Below, piece after piece: positions 7,242 to 28,884 of a DNA stretch of 32,000 nt (positions are counted from its first letter, which is position 1; every line of letters begins with the position of its first letter). The notes under the pieces were generated by a model. That model saw only the letters and a list, made by a program, of their open reading frames with translations, did not search any database and had not been told where the DNA came from. Origin of the DNA: Pseudodesulfovibrio mercurii (GTDB lineage Bacteria; Desulfobacterota; Desulfovibrionia; Desulfovibrionales; Desulfovibrionaceae); assembly GCF_000189295.2 (NCBI RefSeq), contig NC_016803.1, positions 300,001 to 332,000 of the forward strand, written 5' to 3'. Position numbers and translations under genes: made by a program.

Positions 7242-7397
7242 CCGCCCCGGTCCCCGCGCCTTCCGTCCCCGGCCGCCCCGGCCGGACGCGATCCGTTTTT
7301 CCCGGCCAATAATTGCCAATATCCCGAAGAGAGGATAGTGGTGATCCGGTATACGCCTTTCCCTCTGCCGTTCACCTCAGCGCATGGAGCCATTTGC

Positions 7398-9479
7398 ATG
7401 CCGGTACGTCCCATGACGAAGATGATCCTGTTGGGCCTGGCCCTGTGCAGCCTGTTCGCCCTGGCCGCCACCCGAGAGGGGTGGTCGTATTACGGCCTGG
7501 CGGCGGGTGGTGCGCTGCTCGTCTGTCTTGCCGTCGGCGCCGCGTTGGAGAGGGCCGAGGCCCGGCTTCGGGCGGCCCTGGACCGGCTGGTCCGGGGCGG
7601 CGAGTTGCCCGAGGAGGACCGGGGCCTGCTCTGCGGAGCGCTGCTCCCGCTGGCCGGGGGGCTGGCCGCGCAACGCGAGGAGGCGGCCGCCGCCGAACGG
7701 GCCTTTCGGGCCCAGGGCAGCCCGGCCCTGATGTGCGACGCCAAGGGGCGCATCCGTCTGGTCACCGGGTCCCTGCTGGCCATCCTGCGCAAGGCCGAGG
7801 AACAGGTGGTCGGCCGGACCGTGAGCCAGGCCCTGTACGACCGAGACGGGGTTTCGGTGACGGAAAAGGCCCTGCGGACCATGAAGCCCGTGGCCGAGAC
7901 CCTGGACCTCAAATTGTGGGACGGGCGGATCGTGCCGGTGCAGCTTTCCGTGAATTTCGTCCTGGACGGGGCGGGTACGGCCATGGGGGCCGTGGCCTCC
8001 TTCCTGGACCTGTCCGAGCAGATGGGCCGCCGGCGGGAGCTGGAGGAGCAGCGCGGACGCATGAGGCAGGCGGGCGAGCGCATCAGCGACCTGGCCGAGC
8101 ACGTGGCCTCGGCCACGGAACTGCTTTCGGCCTCGGCCGACGAACAGGCCCAGGGCGCGCAGAAGCAGCGCCGTCAGACCGCCTCGGTGGCCACGGCCAT
8201 GGAGGAGATGACCGGCACGGTGCTGGAGGTGGCCCGCAACGCCACGGCGACCAGCGAGGCCGCGGACGAGGCCAACACCTCGGCCGCCGAGGGCGCGGCC
8301 ATGGTCAACGACGCGGTGTCGGCCATCAACCAGGTGGCCGAGTCGGCCCGCCAGCTGGGCCGGGAGATCGGTGAACTGGATTCCCAGGCCGGGGCCATCG
8401 GCCGGATCATCAACGTCATCAACGACATCGCGGACCAGACCAACCTGCTGGCCCTGAACGCTGCCATTGAGGCGGCCCGTGCGGGCGACGCGGGCAGGGG
8501 GTTCGCGGTGGTGGCCGACGAGGTGCGCAAGCTGGCCGAGAAGACCGTGGACGCCACCAAGGAGGTGGAGAAGGCCATCATCGCCATACAGGCGCGCTCC
8601 AAGGAGGCCACCAGTTCCATGCAGGCCACGGCGGCCAGGGTGGAGGAGAGCACGGCCCTGTCCAACCGCGCGGGCGAGTCCCTGCAACGGATCATGGACA
8701 ACATCCGCGACATGGTCGCGCGGGTGGCCCAGATCGCCACAGCCGCCGAGGAGCAATCCTCGGCCGCCGAGGAGATCATGCGCAGCGTGGAGGACATCGC
8801 CTCCATCGCCGAGGACGCGGACGAGGCCGCCGGACAGGCCGCCGGGGCCACCCGGGACATGGCCGAACTGGCCCGGGAACTGCTCGGCGTGTCCAGGGAG
8901 TTCGGCAGCGACGAGACCGGGGCGGGCGGCAGGCTGCGCCGCTCCGAGGGAGAGATGAAGGGCGTCCTGCCCAAGCTGGCCCAGGAGTACGTGCGCAAGA
9001 CCTTCGGCCAGGCGGTCTACGATGCCATGCAGGAGGAGATGGGCAATCCGGTCTTCCTGCCCGGCGACAGCTACCCGGACCAGGCCCTGCTTCAGATGGC
9101 CGAGATTGCGGCGGGGAGCGCGGGCGTCGAGGTCCGGGAGTTCTTCATCGGCCTGGGGAAGTACACGGTGGGCCGCTTCAACGAGCTCTATCCCGGCTAT
9201 TTCAAGAAGGACTCGCTCAAGGACTTCTACCTGCGCATGAACGACGTCCACGCCCAGCTGACCAAGGCCCAGCCGGGCATCAAACCGCCCACCTTCACCT
9301 ACGAGGACAAGGGCGACGTCCTGTTCATGAACTACCGTTCGAGCCGGGGGCTGTTCGACTACTTCGAGGGCATCCTGCTCGGCGCGGCTGACTTCAAGGG
9401 CGAGCGGGCCGAGATCGTCGTGAAGCCCTTTGACGGCCAGTCGGCCCGCGCCGAGATCCGATTCCTCGGTCCCCGCTAG
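7398..9479 (+). CDS. Methyl-accepting chemotaxis protein: TM hairpin, cytoplasmic PAS, MA signalling domain, C-terminal H-NOX domain
   Basis: The highly conserved MCP hairpin tip [44 protein letters not shown] is present. Two N-terminal TM helices are separated by only about 5 residues (TREGW). A PAS-like segment lies at about nt 7695-8018. The C-terminal 174 aa are H-NOX-like. ATG 7398 is preferred (GGAG 8 nt upstream); ATG 7413, ATG 7422 and the start codon opening the ORF at 7338 remain possible. Confidence 0.88.
8955..9476 (+). other. H-NOX (heme-NO/oxygen binding, HNOB) domain at the C-terminus of the MCP
   Basis: The domain starts [13 protein letters not shown] and contains YPGYF and NDVHAQLTK (candidate proximal His, codon 9249-9251). 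It also has PP, the heme-propionate motif YRSSR (Y-x-S-x-R), then [10 protein letters not shown]. These are collinear with the Caldanaerobacter tengcongensis H-NOX as I remember it (MKGTIVG, FPSYF, DEVHLQLTK, YVSKR, YDYFLGLIEG). Confidence 0.75.
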
Positions 9480-9620: not shown

Positions 9621-11885
9621 ATGTCCGGAGACGACCTGAACAGGCAGATATTCAAGGAGGAAGCCTACGACCTCCTGATCGAACTCGAGGGCGCCCTGCT
9701 CGAACTCGAGGAAGCTCCCGACGATATGGATCTGGTCAACCAGATATTTCGGGCCCTGCATACCATCAAGGGGTCCGGTTCCATGTTCGGGTTCGAGGAG
9801 ATCGCCGCTTTCACCCACGAGGTGGAGACGGTCTTCGACATGGTCCGCAACGGCGACGTCCAGGCCACCCCGGTCCTGTGCAGCCTGGCTCTGCGCTCCC
9901 GCGACCAGATCCGGGCCATGCTCGAAGCCGAGGACGACGAGCCCGTGGCCCCGGAGGCCATGCGGGACATCCTCGACGGGTTGCGCGCCTTTGTCGAGGG
10001 GCTCGACGAGGCGGCCCCCGGCGAGGCGGCCGAACCCGCGCCCGAGTCCGTTGCCGAGGAACCGGCCGAACCCGAGGCCGAATCCGCAACCGACGACGCG
10101 TCCAACGCCACCCTGCATCGCTATGCCGTGACCCTCCGTCCCCTGGGCGGCGAGGTGGACGCCGAGGCGGTGGAGGCATTTTTCGAGGAACTGGAGCGGC
10201 TCGGGACCCTCAAGGTCGAGTCGGGCCACCGGGACACCGGCCACGGCTGGGAACTCTCCCTGGAGAGCGAGGCCGCCTGCGACGATGTCCAGGACGTGTT
10301 CTTCTTTTTGGACGCGAACCTCAAGGTCGAGGTCCGGGAGCTGGACGAAACCCCTGAACCGGCCTCCGTTGCGACCCCCGAACCGACCTCCGAATCTGTT
10401 TCCGAACCCGTTTCCGAACCGGACGAGGGGGCGGCCGAGTCCGCTCCGTCCGGCAAGCACAGGCCCGCCGCCCCGGTGGCCAGCTTCGTGGACGAGGAAG
10501 AGGAGTCCGTGCGCATCCCCATGATCGGCGAGATGCTCGTGGAGAGCGGGGACCTGACCTATGCGGACGTGGCCGAGGCCCTGACCTCCCAGAAGGGCGG
10601 GGTGGACAAGCCGTTGGGCCAGATCCTGACCGAGTCGGGCAAGGTCCCGGCGGACAAGGTGGACAACGCGGTCCGGCGGCAGGGCGAGGCCCGCGAGCAG
10701 GTGGCCGGGAAGAAGCGCCAGGAGGCCCTGAGCAGCATCCGGGTGGCGGCGGACAAGCTCGACTACCTGGTGGACCTGGTGGGCGAACTGGTCATCGTCC
10801 AGGCGCAGATCACCCAGGTGGTCAGCGAGAGGCACGACGCGGCCCTGACCCTTCTGGCCGAGGAGCTGGAGCGCTTGAGCGACGAGTTGCGCGACTCCAC
10901 GCTGGGCATCCGCATGCTGCCCATCGGCACCTCCTTCAGCAAGTTCCGGCGGCTGGTGCGCGACCTTTCGGGCGACCTGGGCAAGCAGATCACCCTGTCC
11001 ACCAGCGGCGCCGAGACCGAGCTGGACAAAACGGTCATCGAGCGGCTGGGCGACCCCCTGGTCCACCTGCTGCGCAACTCCATCGACCACGGCATCGAGC
11101 TGCCCCAGGAGCGGGTGGCCAAGGGCAAGCCCCCGCAGGGCAACATCATGCTCTCGGCCGAACACTCGGGCGGCGAGGTGCTCATTCGCATCACCGACGA
11201 CGGCAAGGGCATGTCCAGCGAGATGATCCGCGAGAAGGGCATCGAGCGGGGGCTGATCTCCAAGGACGCCGAACTGACCGAGAAGGAGCTGCTCAAGCTC
11301 ATCTTCGAGCCCGGTTTCTCCACGGCCAAGGTGGTGACCAGCGTGTCCGGCCGGGGCGTGGGCATGGACGTGGTCAAGCGCGCCATCGACTCCCTGCGCG
11401 GGACCATCGACATCGACTCCAAGCCCAACGCGGGCACGACCATCACCATCCGGCTGCCCCTGACCCTGGCCATCATCGACGGGCTCCAGGTCCGGGTGGA
11501 GAACGAATTCTACGTCATCCCCCTGTCCCTGGTGGAGGAGTGCGTGGAGCTGTCCCGCGCCGAGGTGGAGGAGTCCGGCTCCGGGCAGCGCATCCTGCAC
11601 CTGCGCGGCGAGATCGTGCCGTACATCCACATCCGCGAGTGGTTCGACATCGAGGGCGAGAACCCGCCCATCGAGCAGATCGTCATCACCGGCGTGGAGG
11701 GAAGCCGCGTCGGCATCGTGGTGGATACGGTCATCGGCGAGCACCAGACGGTCATCAAGAGCCTGGGCCGCGTGTACAAGGACGTGGAGGGCATCTCCGG
11801 AGCGACCATCAAGGGCGACGGGTCCATTGCGTTGATCCTGGACGTGCCCGGCCTGATCCGTCGGGTGATTGCCGAATCCAGATAG
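9621..11885 (+). CDS. cheA: Chemotaxis histidine kinase CheA (P1 Hpt, acidic linkers, MshEN-like insert, P3, P4 HATPase, P5 CheW-like)
   Basis: The Hpt site is [15 protein letters not shown] (His47). The dimerisation region is [20 protein letters not shown]. The N box is [12 protein letters not shown], with G boxes DDGKGM and GRGVGMDVV. The C-terminal CheW-like domain is IIDGLQV...[21 protein letters not shown] precedes the ATG. Confidence 0.93.
10512..10682 (+). other. MshEN / T2SSE_N-like double motif inside CheA (residues ~298-354)
   Basis: There are two consecutive 24-residue units, [24 protein letters not shown] and [24 protein letters not shown], separated by KGGVDK. They fit the pattern xLGxxLVxxGxLxxxxLxxxLxxQ described for MshEN/T2SSE_N repeats. 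The leading Arg of each unit is not conserved. Confidence 0.5.
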
Positions 11886-11904
11886 TATTTCCGAGAGGTT
11901 ATCC

Positions 11905-12972
11905 ATGCGAAAGATTCGAGTTCTCATTGTCGATGATTCCGCGGTCGTCCGGCAGACGCTCGAGGACATCCTGTCGTCCGACCCCCAGATCGAGATCATG
12001 GGCACGGCCGTGGACCCTTACGCGGCCGCCGAGCGGCTCAAGAAGGAGGTCCCGGACGTCATCACCCTGGACATCGAGATGCCGCGCATGGACGGGCTGA
12101 CCTTTTTGCGCAAGATCATGCAGCAGCGGCCCATTCCGGTGGTCATCTGCTCCTCCGTGGCCGGGGAGGGCACCTCCAACGCGGTCAAGGCCCTGGAATA
12201 CGGGGCCGTGGAGATCATCACCAAGCCCAAGGTGGGGACCAAGAAGTTTCTCGAGGAGTCGAAGATCCGGCTCATCGACAAGGTCAAGGCGGCGGCCCTG
12301 GCCGGGGCCCGGCCCGTGCGCCCGGCGGCCCCGCCGGTCCAGGTCAAGCCCAAGCTCAGCGCGGACGCGGTCATCGCCAAGGGCAAGCCCGTGGCCATGT
12401 CCCCAACGGAGAAGGTCTGCCTGGTGGGCGCGTCAACGGGCGGCACCGAGGCGCTGCGCGTCTTTCTCGAGGCCCAGCCCGAGAACTGCCCGCCCATCGC
12501 CATCGTCCAGCACATGCCCGAGCACTTCACGGCGGCGTTCGCCAACCGGCTCAACGGCATCTGCCGGATCACGGTCAAGGAGGCGGCGGACGGCGACGCC
12601 ATGATGCGCGGCCTGGCCCTGATCGCGCCGGGCGACAAGCACCTGCTCCTCAAGCGCACGGGCAACAAGTATTACGTGGAGGTCAAGGAGGGTCCCTTGG
12701 TCTCGCGGCACCGGCCCTCGGTGGACGTGCTCTTCCGCTCGGGGGCGCGGTACGGCGGGGCCAACGTGGTGGCCGCCATCATGACCGGCATGGGCGACGA
12801 CGGGGCCAAGGGCATGAAGGAGCTCAAGGACGCCGGGGCGTACACCATCGCCCAGGACGAGGCCAGCTGCGTGGTCTTCGGCATGCCCCAGGAGGCCATC
12901 AAGGAAGGCGGCGTGGACAAGGTCCTGTCCCTGGAAAAGATCGCGCCGGAGATTGTTCGAGCCTGCGGCTGA
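11905..12972 (+). CDS. cheB: Protein-glutamate methylesterase/glutaminase CheB (REC + CheB_methylest)
   Basis: ATG 11905 is preceded by GAGAGG. The REC domain is [12 protein letters not shown]...[12 protein letters not shown]. Methylesterase catalytic motifs are [10 protein letters not shown] (Ser), VQHMP (His) and GMGDDGA (Asp). Confidence 0.93.
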
Positions 12973-13102: not shown

Positions 13103-13435
13103 CTAGCTGTGGCGGTAGGCGATGACGTCCACCTCTTCGCGGGTGACCATGCCTTCCCTGAGCATGCCGTCGAGCTGGTCGAGCAGGGGCTTGAGCTTGT
13201 CCGGGTGGTCCACCACCTCCACGACCACGGGCAGGTCTTCGGACAGGCGCAGGATCTTGCTGGTGTGGATCAGGGAGTTGGCCCCGAAGCCCATCAGCCC
13301 CCGGTAGACCGTGGCCCCGGCCAGGCCCAGTTCGCGGGCCCGGCGGACGATGGCGTCGGCCAGGGGCTGGCCGTCGAACTTGTCGTCCTCGCCGATGTAG
13401 ATTCTGATGCGTTCCGCCTTTTCGAGCAGTTTCAT
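13103..13435 (-). CDS. DUF190 domain protein (PII-like, CrcB-associated)
   Basis: 110 aa, with RIYIGEDDKFDGQPLADAIVRRARELGLAGATVYRGLMGFG typical of DUF190. It lies 21 nt downstream of crcB on the same strand, and GGGGGAA precedes the ATG. Confidence 0.8.
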   Translation of the reverse strand: MKLLEKAERIRIYIGEDDKFDGQPLADAIVRRARELGLAGATVYRGLMGFGANSLIHTSKILRLSEDLPVVVEVVDHPDKLKPLLDQLDGMLREGMVTREEVDVIAYRHS

Positions 13436-13456: not shown

Positions 13457-13834
13457 TTAGAGCAGGCGGCCCAGGGCGATGCCGGTCAGGACCAGGGCCA
13501 GCCCGGCCACGGACTGGCCGACCACGTTGACCAGGGCCATGGCCATCTGCGCGGACTTGACCAGGTTCGCGGTCTCGAACATGTAGGTGGAGAAGGTGGT
13601 GAAGGCGCCCATGAACCCGGTCAGGACCAGGAGCCGGACCTCGCTGCCGGGCAGCAGACGGTTCTCGAAGAACCCCCAGACCGCGCCGAAGAGCAGGCAG
13701 CCGGCCATGTTCACGGCGAAGGTGCCCGCCGGAAAGGAGCCGCCCGCCATGCGCTGGGCCACGCCGGACAGGAAATAGCGCGACAGGGTCCCGGCGGCCC
13801 CGCCCAGAGAAAGATAGAGAATTTTGGTCAGCAT
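13457..13834 (-). CDS. crcB: Fluoride ion channel CrcB/FluC
   Basis: 125 aa with four hydrophobic segments. The signatures GGAAGTLSRY and GFMGAFTTFSTY are present. ATG 13834 is preceded by AAGGA, whereas the longer ORF start at 13867 lacks an RBS. Confidence 0.88.
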   Translation of the reverse strand: MLTKILYLSLGGAAGTLSRYFLSGVAQRMAGGSFPAGTFAVNMAGCLLFGAVWGFFENRLLPGSEVRLLVLTGFMGAFTTFSTYMFETANLVKSAQMAMALVNVVGQSVAGLALVLTGIALGRLL

Positions 13835-13880
13835 TTCGATATCCTTGGCCGAGGTATACCAACACAAGGAGAGAAAGCCA

Positions 13881-27802: not shown

Positions 27803-28180
27803 TCAGTGCTCGGCCAGATAGTTGAACATGAATTCGTAGGCGTGACGCATCTCCTCTTCAAGGTGGTCCATGAGGGCCAGGGCCGAGTGCAGGTCGCCCG
27901 CCCTGCAGGCGTTTTCGAGCTGGAGACAGCAGTCGCGCACCCGTTCCACGCCGATGGTGGCCGCCCCGCCCTTGAGGGAGTGGGCCAGGTGGCGAAGCTT
28001 TTCCACGTCCCCGGAGGTCAGGGCGTCCCTGATGTTCTGGATTCTCTTGGGCTCCTGGGAGATGAACACGGTGAACATCCGTTTCATGAACGGACGCCGA
28101 TCCGCCATGGATTCCAGGAATTTGCTGTCCACTATTTCCTTTTCCACCGTATCTACCGCCTTTGGGGAAATACCGATCAT
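27803..28180 (-). CDS. Stand-alone Hpt (histidine phosphotransfer) domain protein
   Basis: 125 aa from ATG 28180, with the Hpt signature LRHLAHSLKGGAATIG and four-helix-bundle-like heptads. The in-frame extension to 28576 overlaps the CPBP gene and is Pro/Arg/Gly-rich, so it is rejected. ATG 28108 is an alternative start. Confidence 0.72.
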   Translation of the reverse strand: MIGISPKAVDTVEKEIVDSKFLESMADRRPFMKRMFTVFISQEPKRIQNIRDALTSGDVEKLRHLAHSLKGGAATIGVERVRDCCLQLENACRAGDLHSALALMDHLEEEMRHAYEFMFNYLAEH

Positions 28181-28254
28181 GCGATCGGATTCTCTCCCTA
28201 TACTGCGGCGGGTCGCTTTCGGCAACTGGTTTGCGAAGAAAGTGGGGTCGTCGA

Positions 28255-28884
28255 TCAGCCGGGATTGTAGAAGAATCGGCCGAGCCCCACGGTGAAGACG
28301 ATGCAGCCGTAGGCCGCGTGTTCCAGGGAGGCGAGGAGGAGTGACCCGGTCCTGCGGTAGATCCGGGCGAAGATGAAGCCCGCCGGGAGGGTCAAGACCA
28401 CGGCCACCCAGTTGCCGAAGACCACGTGCAGGAAGGAGAAGGTCAGCGCGCTGGCCCAGGTGCGGGCGGATTCGGATTTCAGGATGGGGGCGTAGCGCCG
28501 GAAGAGGAAGGCCCGGTACACGGCCTCCTGGGGGAAGGCGGACAGGAGCGGGTAGAGGGCCATGACGGTCAGCCACAGGAGCGGCCGGGTGCGGGGGAAC
28601 TCAAAGAGCCCGTCCGGGATGAAAATGAGCATGATGGCCACGGAAAGCAGGGCCACGGCCAGGGTGCGGAGGGCGATGGCCCGCAAATTGCGTGTATTTT
28701 CACCCAAAAAAACGAAAAAATCCGTTTTTCGAAGGAATCCGTTCCTGTCGAGATAGAGGAGGCAGGCGGCCGCGATGGTCAGGAGCAGGGGGATTTTGGG
28801 CACGGGCAGCCAGCCCAGGGCGTGGAGCAGCGGGGTCAGGCCGAACAGGGCCAGGAATTCGATCCACAGGAACGGGCCGGGCAT
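28255..28884 (-). CDS. CPBP family intramembrane metalloprotease (CAAX protease-like)
   Basis: 209 aa and polytopic. The motifs are FPQEAVYRAFLF (EExxxR-type, with the first Glu as Gln), FSFLH (FxxxH) and LEHAAYG (HxxxN/D-type). No clear Shine-Dalgarno precedes ATG 28884. Confidence 0.7.
   Translation of the reverse strand: MPGPFLWIEFLALFGLTPLLHALGWLPVPKIPLLLTIAAACLLYLDRNGFLRKTDFFVFLGENTRNLRAIALRTLAVALLSVAIMLIFIPDGLFEFPRTRPLLWLTVMALYPLLSAFPQEAVYRAFLFRRYAPILKSESARTWASALTFSFLHVVFGNWVAVVLTLPAGFIFARIYRRTGSLLLASLEHAAYGCIVFTVGLGRFFYNPG

Follow-up and report, generated by a model that had tools for sequence, protein, structure and literature searches.

The window examined here, a 32,000-nucleotide stretch of the Pseudodesulfovibrio mercurii genome (Desulfobacterota; Desulfovibrionia; Desulfovibrionales; Desulfovibrionaceae; RefSeq assembly GCF_000189295.2, contig NC_016803.1, positions 300,001 to 332,000), carries a chemotaxis gene cluster in which the histidine kinase gene cheA codes for an additional small module, located just before the dimerization domain P3, that belongs to the MshEN_N family of cyclic di-GMP (c-di-GMP)-binding domains. 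Judged by its sequence, the open reading frame (ORF) at 9621 to 11885 is a complete CheA. The Pfam matches to Hpt, H-kinase_dim, HATPase_c and CheW are each over their cut-off, the whole protein matches the NCBIfam CheA model with an E value of 2e-144, and the HTIKGSG phospho-acceptor context and the N, G1, F and G2 boxes can be recognized in the translation. The nearest named CheA is that of Pseudodesulfovibrio methanolicus (86% identity), and the insert is 92% identical to that of P. karagichevae. The features discussed are collected in Table 1.

Table 1. Features of the cheA locus and of the rest of the window (positions within the window; aa, amino acids; MCP, methyl-accepting chemotaxis protein).
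Feature	Position	Strand	Evidence and remarks
Chemoreceptor, PAS + MCP signaling + C-terminal H-NOX (HNOB)	7338..9479	+	Pfam; true start probably downstream of 7338
cheA, 754 aa, predicted domain order P1-P2-MshEN_N-P3-P4-P5	9621..11885	+	ORF list, Pfam, NCBIfam
P1 (Hpt), aa 8-103	9642..9929	+	Pfam PF01627, E 1.3e-16
P2-like βαββαβ domain, aa 166-241	10116..10343	+	AlphaFold, Foldseek
Disordered acidic Pro/Ser-rich linker, aa 244-296	10350..10508	+	AlphaFold pLDDT, ortholog variability
MshEN_N motif 1 (helices α1-α2), aa 301-324	10521..10592	+	Profile, model, alignment
Inter-motif spacer KGGVDK, aa 325-330	10593..10610	+	Translation, ortholog alignment
MshEN_N motif 2 (helices α3-α4), aa 331-354	10611..10682	+	Profile, model, alignment
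Connector, aa 355-370, predicted continuation of α4 into P3 helix 1	10683..10730	+	AlphaFold, ortholog alignment
P3 dimerization hairpin, aa 371-431	10731..10913	+	Pfam PF02895 (371-427), AlphaFold helices
P4 ATP-binding kinase domain, aa 479-615	11055..11465	+	Pfam PF02518, E 8e-20
P5 CheW-like domain, aa 621-748	11481..11864	+	Pfam PF01584, E 1.5e-28
cheB, receiver + methylesterase, directly downstream of cheA	11869..12972	+	Pfam, synteny; true start probably a few codons in
DUF190 gene	13103-13435	-	
ORF of 257 residues, C-terminal Hpt (E 3e-19), no other recognized domain	27803-28576	-	

MshEN_N is a 53-residue module of four helices, built from two copies of a motif; in MshE, PilF and NfrB it binds a single molecule of c-di-GMP. 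Residues 302 to 354 of this CheA match the NCBIfam model NF053729 (cyclic di-GMP-binding, MshE-related) over profile positions 2 to 53 of 53, with E values from 4e-9 to 1.6e-9, and the same model was matched by every one of 50 orthologous inserts (best E 3.6e-18). The NCBIfam models of the NfrB-type glycosyltransferase and of EpsG match the insert too. When the insert fragment was compared with the PDB using phmmer, it retrieved Thermus PilF (6f8l, residues 304 to 359, E 1e-5), and a profile made from the 50 orthologous inserts retrieved the same protein with an E value of 4e-24, together with Geobacter PilB (5tsg, E 1e-8) and Vibrio cholerae MshE (5htl, E 5e-8). A hidden Markov model search of all representatives gave 14,439 clusters at E ≤ 1e-3, the top 150 being mostly multi-repeat proteins, which shows the large size of the MshEN_N family. 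An AlphaFold2 model, run on the alignment of the 50 orthologous inserts, has four helices with a mean predicted local distance difference test score (pLDDT) of 93. Its best Foldseek matches in the PDB are the c-di-GMP-bound GSPII-B domain of PilF (8pfa, 8pdk and 8pe0) and MshE with c-di-GMP (5htl), with a query TM-score (TMq) of 0.78 to 0.81, a root mean square deviation (rmsd) of 0.8 to 1.2 Å over 55 to 57 residues and a probability of 1.00; the top 15 are all N-domains of MshE or PilF/PilB (probability 0.99 to 1.00). Because of these profile matches and of a predicted bundle that resembles c-di-GMP-bound PilF and MshE, we conclude that the insert is an MshEN_N domain and not a linker or a motif arisen by chance, and the homology is secure by profile. 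The MshEN-like identity proposed in the initial annotation is thereby borne out, and the outcome that would have spoken against it, a region lacking any profile match and predicted as a disordered or simple helical linker, is not what the NF053729 match and the compact bundle indicate. As a separate observation, a weak match to Pfam DUF4388 (PF14332; E 0.04, profile positions 34 to 76) lies over the MshEN_N region at 10440 to 10720 (aa ~303 to 362), and the DUF4388 family may include an MshEN-like segment.

The two consecutive 24-residue units between P1 and P3 that had been noticed from the translation are indeed there and, with a spacer of 6 residues (5 in MshE; PMC5013675), add up to 54 residues, the MshEN_N definition being about 53 (PMC5013675). 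The interval first assigned to them, 10512 to 10682, has the correct end and a start that is three codons (R-I-P) too early. A loose pattern accepting both units matched nothing else when the full 32 kb were translated in six frames, and shuffled versions of the CheA sequence contained the double unit in 0 of 20,000 cases and a single unit in 1%. Since this pattern was fitted after the fact, it is the profile statistics that carry weight, the E values of NF053729 and phmmer being independent of it.

A survey of CheA homologs for the insert had been suggested in the initial annotation. In an alignment of the 120 best CheA homologs, all from Desulfovibrionaceae, the double motif was present in 118. 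The motif columns have a top-residue frequency of 0.68 to 0.70 with gaps of 0.01, against 0.20 and 0.45, respectively, for the linker directly upstream. We also scanned genomes, one per species, with a 13-sequence alignment of the insert and the start of P3, a query biased to this CheA lineage and silent on other phyla, and obtained 278 related loci. The best 80 of them, which were examined, come from the genera Pseudodesulfovibrio, Maridesulfovibrio, Salidesulfovibrio, Solidesulfovibrio, Nitratidesulfovibrio, Desulfocurvus, Humidesulfovibrio, Fundidesulfovibrio and others, and at least 76 of the 80 had the double motif. Three of these 80 loci (L013, L057 and L071) come from metagenome-assembled genomes labeled Planctomycetaceae or Acidobacteriota and have CheA inserts 50 to 62% identical to the Desulfovibrionaceae type; the labels probably reflect contig mis-binning and not the true distribution. 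In 82 of the 120 orthologs and in 47 of 51 parsed genome loci, the spacer that joins Gln24 of motif 1 to the first position of motif 2 is a single residue, Lys or Arg. Two independent ortholog clusters (P0095 and P0096) have only a single hybrid motif, RLGEILVRKGVVKAEDVDNAVKDQ, in which the first half of motif 1 runs into the second half of motif 2, as would follow from the loss of exactly one repeat unit.

The residues that contact the ligand are known from MshE (PMC5013675). Each guanine is read there through two backbone amides, that of Gly3 and that of the residue after it; they contact O6 and N7, a place where adenine clashes. Positions 2, 17 and 21 of each motif form hydrophobic triangular clusters that hold the guanines. 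Gln24 of each motif forms hydrogen bonds with ribose and phosphate, and the side chain at position 1 stacks on the guanine with its aliphatic part. Mutants of MshE at G11 and G40 lost binding, and changes of L to A cost 10- to 36-fold. In the alignment with MshE, I302, G303, V317, L321 and Q324 of motif 1 correspond to L10, G11, L25, L29 and Q32, and L332, G333, V347, V351 and Q354 of motif 2 to L39, G40, L54, L58 and Q61. Both Gly3 residues are conserved (G303 in 120/120 orthologs, G333 in 118/120), and so are both Gln24 residues (Q324 in 118/120, Q354 in 120/120) and the Gly10 of each motif (G310 invariant or nearly so, G340 in 118/120); the two orthologs without G333 and G340 are the single-motif variants. 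Positions 2, 17 and 21 are all aliphatic in both motifs and are occupied by L, I or V in the orthologs. As far as alignments can tell, the contact set of Gly3, positions 2, 17 and 21 and Gln24 is thus shown to be intact and under strong purifying selection across the Desulfovibrionales.

Position 1 needs a separate comment. The initial annotation had remarked that the leading Arg of the motifs is replaced by Met and Pro, and had not taken c-di-GMP binding as assured on that account. The substitutions are real (M301 and P331), and published data largely answer this caution. Motif 1 of the 120 orthologs has R at this position in 55 cases, K in 50, M in 10 and L in 5. The published consensus for this position is Arg in its strict form, R/K/L in the extended one and [RKPN] in the relaxed search pattern, with Met in none of these lists. 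Motif 2 starts with KRLG or RRLG in the more distant orthologs, from which it follows that P331 occupies the Arg position. In PilF's GSPII-B domain, the K167L variant binds at 2 nM, the wild type at 6 nM and K167R at 150 nM, and motif II of that domain naturally begins with Leu (L196), while in GSPII-C, which binds c-di-GMP at about 0.46 to 0.5 µM, position 1 of motif II is a Pro (PMC11731258). PilF K167L, the Pro of GSPII-C and the Met of an Aeromonas veronii CheA that binds the ligand (see below) all suggest that Met and Pro at position 1 would not hinder binding.

The module had been placed where P2 normally sits, a location that did not hold up. In an AlphaFold model of CheA aa 165 to 435, residues 166 to 241 have the topology E-H-E-E-H-E with a pLDDT of ~95, and their best Foldseek match is the CheY-bound P2 domain of Thermotoga maritima CheA (1u0s_A, E 4e-3, target TM-score [TMt] 0.64). 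Escherichia coli P2 (1ffg_B) was also matched, although the fold is a generic one for which ferredoxin-like proteins give similar scores. The Pfam CheY-binding family gave a weak match to aa 179 to 229 (E 0.12), and a sequence profile of this region found no P2 in the PDB. With this suggestive, fold-level support, a P2 domain is most probably present in the model at aa 166 to 241, and the MshEN_N module would therefore be an insertion in the linker between P2 and P3 and not a replacement of P2. Residues 244 to 291 have a pLDDT below 50 and appear to form a tether of about 50 residues before MshEN_N. At the other end, one helix is predicted from aa 344 to 404 (α4 running into P3 helix 1; pLDDT 87 to 97), followed by P3 helix 2 at aa 407 to 431. 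Of 115 orthologs, 96 share one length of the connector that leads from motif 2 to P3 (which begins with SSIRV), with gaps of 0.01, and this fits a rigid helical link.

The fusion of CheA with MshEN_N is already published, as an entry in a supplementary table of 2016 with one binding constant, and the Desulfovibrionales lineage is an added member. Wang et al. (2016, Nat Commun 7:12481, Suppl. Tables 4 and 6, PMC5013675) reported that MshEN occurs with CheA and listed the architecture HPT-P2-MshEN_N-P3-P4-P5, so that the idea of an unusual input point, put forward in the initial annotation, is not sustained. A fragment of A. veronii CheA (residues 261 to 390) bound c-di-GMP with a dissociation constant (KD) of 2.6 µM by isothermal titration calorimetry (Suppl. 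Table 6, PMC5013675). Like the CheA of P. mercurii, this protein has the N subdomain alone, directly N-terminal to P3 in what is probably the same domain order, and its motif 1 begins with Met and not with Arg. It differs in coming from a gammaproteobacterium and not from a member of the Desulfovibrionaceae, in the start of motif 2 (K-LG instead of K-P-LG) and in having Ala at position 11 instead of Asp and Lys; moreover, binding was measured for the A. veronii fragment and is predicted here. V. cholerae MshEN (5HTL) shares the 53-residue double motif, the four-helix bundle and the conserved Gly3, hydrophobic triads and Gln24, and superimposes on the predicted structure of the insert at 1.0 to 1.2 Å. 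Unlike the insert, it has an additional α/β C-subdomain, is fused to an ATPase of the type II secretion/type IV pilus class and has Arg at position 1 of both motifs. The isolated MshEN_N of MshE suffices for c-di-GMP binding (KD 0.35 µM). The best sequence match to PilF of Thermus thermophilus is residues 302 to 359, motifs I and II of GSPII-C, which share with this CheA the K-P-LG start of motif II and in which position 11 of motif I is a Lys (6f8l; Neissner et al. 2024, JBC). In PilF, however, three GSPII domains stand in tandem, each including a C-subdomain, and the protein is a pilus ATPase that has no link to a histidine kinase.

Taken together, aa 301 to 354 are probably a c-di-GMP-binding MshEN_N domain that sits in the P2-P3 linker, is coupled to P3 by a helix and alters the rate of autophosphorylation. 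CheA would bind one c-di-GMP per protomer with a KD in the sub- to low-micromolar range. Helix α4 is predicted to continue without interruption into P3 helix 1, across a connector whose length is fixed, and the N-terminus of the P3 hairpin would lie at the same end as the exit of helix 2 to P4, a disposition through which the two might be coupled. A bundle ordered by the ligand could then change the P3/P4 geometry, or the access of P1 to the ATP site, and with it the autophosphorylation rate. By analogy with other c-di-GMP inputs into motility, high c-di-GMP might be expected to damp or bias signaling through the pathway. In some CheAs the binding site might even be built across the dimer, with one motif per protomer, as hinted by the common near-spacer-less tandems and by the two ortholog clusters with a single hybrid motif; such an arrangement is conceivable because CheA is dimeric and c-di-GMP is two-fold symmetric.

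Several observations weigh against a ligand-binding, helix-coupled module. The NF053729 score of this CheA, 36.1 to 37.4 bits, is 0.6 to 2 below the curated cut-off of 38. Pfam T2SSE_N (PF05157), the profile that the initial annotation had proposed to run as a check, gave no match at E ≤ 10 with either the full CheA or the fragment. We infer that it failed because the model covers the whole of MshEN and only the N-terminal half is present in CheA; the AlphaFold model of aa 165 to 435 has no α/β C-subdomain, α4 passing straight into P3, and for both reasons we class the insert as MshEN_N only and not as a full MshEN, in line with how Wang et al. treat CheA. Three of the six hydrophobic cluster positions are Val and not Leu. 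At position 11, which is hydrophobic in the consensus and part of the bundle core, motif 1 has Asp and motif 2 has Lys; motif 2 also has Thr at position 7, another hydrophobic core position in the consensus. XpsE I19R, a change at position 11, is listed among those linked to lost binding. These deviations (position 11, Thr7 and Val for Leu) could lower the affinity. Positions 6 and 12 are hydrophobic in both motifs, a Lys at position 11 occurs also in PilF GSPII-C motif I, and the insert is nonetheless modeled with a confident fold. As to the coupling, the motif 2-to-P3 connector has 13 residues in A. veronii, 23 in Nitratidesulfovibrio oxamicus and 18 here, and the continuous α4-P3 helix comes from an AlphaFold model of the monomer. 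No GGDEF, EAL or HD-GYP gene was found in the window, and searches of open-access papers and bioRxiv turned up no reported effect of c-di-GMP on any CheA, nor any work on its action through MshEN_N.

Some of these points would suit a degenerate MshEN_N that has lost c-di-GMP binding and serves as a structural spacer or as a dock for a partner, like the non-binding N-domain of Xanthomonas PilB that docks PilZ. Non-binding relatives do exist (XpsE, PilF GSPII-A and Deinococcus geothermalis PilB_3), the structural matches of the insert include the PilB(N)-PilZ complex 7lkm, although with a poorer fit (rmsd 2.9 to 4.1 Å), and the charged position 11 in both motifs and the NF053729 score just under the cut-off could be read in the same way. 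Nevertheless, the residues that are invariant go beyond the bundle core and are those that contact the ligand (both Gly3, both Gln24 and the hydrophobic 2/17/21 positions), and the disabling substitutions of XpsE at Gly3, position 21 and Gln24 are all absent from this CheA. The nearest tested relative of the same architecture, that of A. veronii, binds at 2.6 µM, and the insert model matches ligand-bound structures best, so that we regard a loss of binding as unlikely. The module could also bind another cyclic dinucleotide in vivo, such as 3',3'-cyclic GMP-AMP (cGAMP), which some deltaproteobacteria produce via Hypr-GGDEF enzymes. The MshEN_N of V. cholerae binds cGAMP, if weakly (KD 3.3e-4 M). 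Yet Gly3 and the residue that follows it read each guanine through their backbone amides, against which adenine clashes, and with both Gly3 kept in this CheA the same guanine preference is predicted in both halves, which makes a different ligand quite improbable.

Two further readings concern the identity of the insert and not its ligand. In Vibrio and Pseudomonas, CheA has a "localization and inheritance domain" (LID) that binds ParP for the inheritance of polar arrays, and it lies in the same general position, between P2 and P3. LIDs have repeats with an EFExLLD core, limited to organisms with ParC and ParP, and we have rejected this identity as very improbable, as the insert lacks the EFExLLD motif and matches MshEN_N instead in both profile and fold. 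That the motifs match by chance, in a linker that is simply helical or disordered, could be argued from the failure of Pfam T2SSE_N; this reading has a negligible probability and is refuted by the profile, fold, shuffle and conservation results: an NF053729 E value of 4e-9, an E value of 4e-24 between the insert profile and PilF, a compact bundle with a pLDDT of 93, no double unit in the 20,000 shuffles, and both motifs kept in 118 of 120 orthologs next to a hypervariable linker.

A c-di-GMP-binding domain within CheA would be of interest for how the second messenger reaches chemotaxis. The known links use PilZ adaptors, PilZ-bearing receptors or the motor. They include the PilZ adaptor MapZ, acting on CheR1 in Pseudomonas aeruginosa, V. 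cholerae PlzC, and the PilZ-containing chemoreceptors Tlp1 of Azospirillum and Cbp1 of Azorhizobium. As would be the case here, in those routes a second messenger enters the chemosensory pathway; they rely, however, on PilZ domains, with the methyltransferase, the receptor or the motor as the target, and not on an MshEN-type domain inside the kinase. A receptor domain within the kinase would be the shortest path from the second messenger that governs the sessile or motile state to chemotactic signaling. To the published fusion we add that the module is a conserved, selected trait of one CheA lineage across the sulfate-reducing Desulfovibrionales, with a predicted rigid join to the dimerization helix and a gene cluster shared with an H-NOX chemoreceptor. 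Defined proteins and point mutants of Gly3 and Gln24 offer a way into the question of c-di-GMP and CheA.

The gene upstream of cheA codes for the chemoreceptor, with its H-NOX (HNOB) domain (E 3e-31) placed after the signaling domain and a YxSxR-type motif, YRSSR, in the translation. It is notable that an H-NOX domain in this place, behind the signaling domain, is found next to a CheA that probably senses c-di-GMP. The order of PAS-MCP-H-NOX chemoreceptor, CheA and CheB is identical in P. methanolicus (chemoreceptor of 654 aa), and a PAS-MCP-H-NOX gene also precedes cheA in D. aminophilus. N. oxamicus has MCP, cheY, cheA and cheR, in that order. D. aminophilus, M. hydrothermalis and N. oxamicus (L002, L003 and L078) have a cheR gene between cheA and cheB, which is missing from this position here (junction 11885 to 11905) and in P. 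methanolicus. None of the loci examined has cheW next to the che cluster, and cheY was found there in N. oxamicus alone. We tentatively suggest, as a rather doubtful extension of the proposal made above, that c-di-GMP could be a direct allosteric input to CheA through the continuous helix, with ligand occupancy setting the kinase output; because the cluster of H-NOX chemoreceptor, CheA, CheR (in some relatives) and CheB is conserved across the Desulfovibrionales, a gas or redox signal and a second messenger could then meet at one kinase. In D. vulgaris, which has three CheAs, CheA3 alone is required for halos in soft agar (PMC3944678).

Elsewhere in the window, the ORF at 27803 to 28576 is a stand-alone phosphotransfer protein. 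In an Rfam screen of the whole window, no family, the fluoride riboswitch included, came up to its gathering score. The ORF at 13457 to 13867, on the reverse strand, adjoins the DUF190 gene; the genes at the corresponding place in P. methanolicus and D. aminophilus carry the annotation CRCB (fluoride channel).

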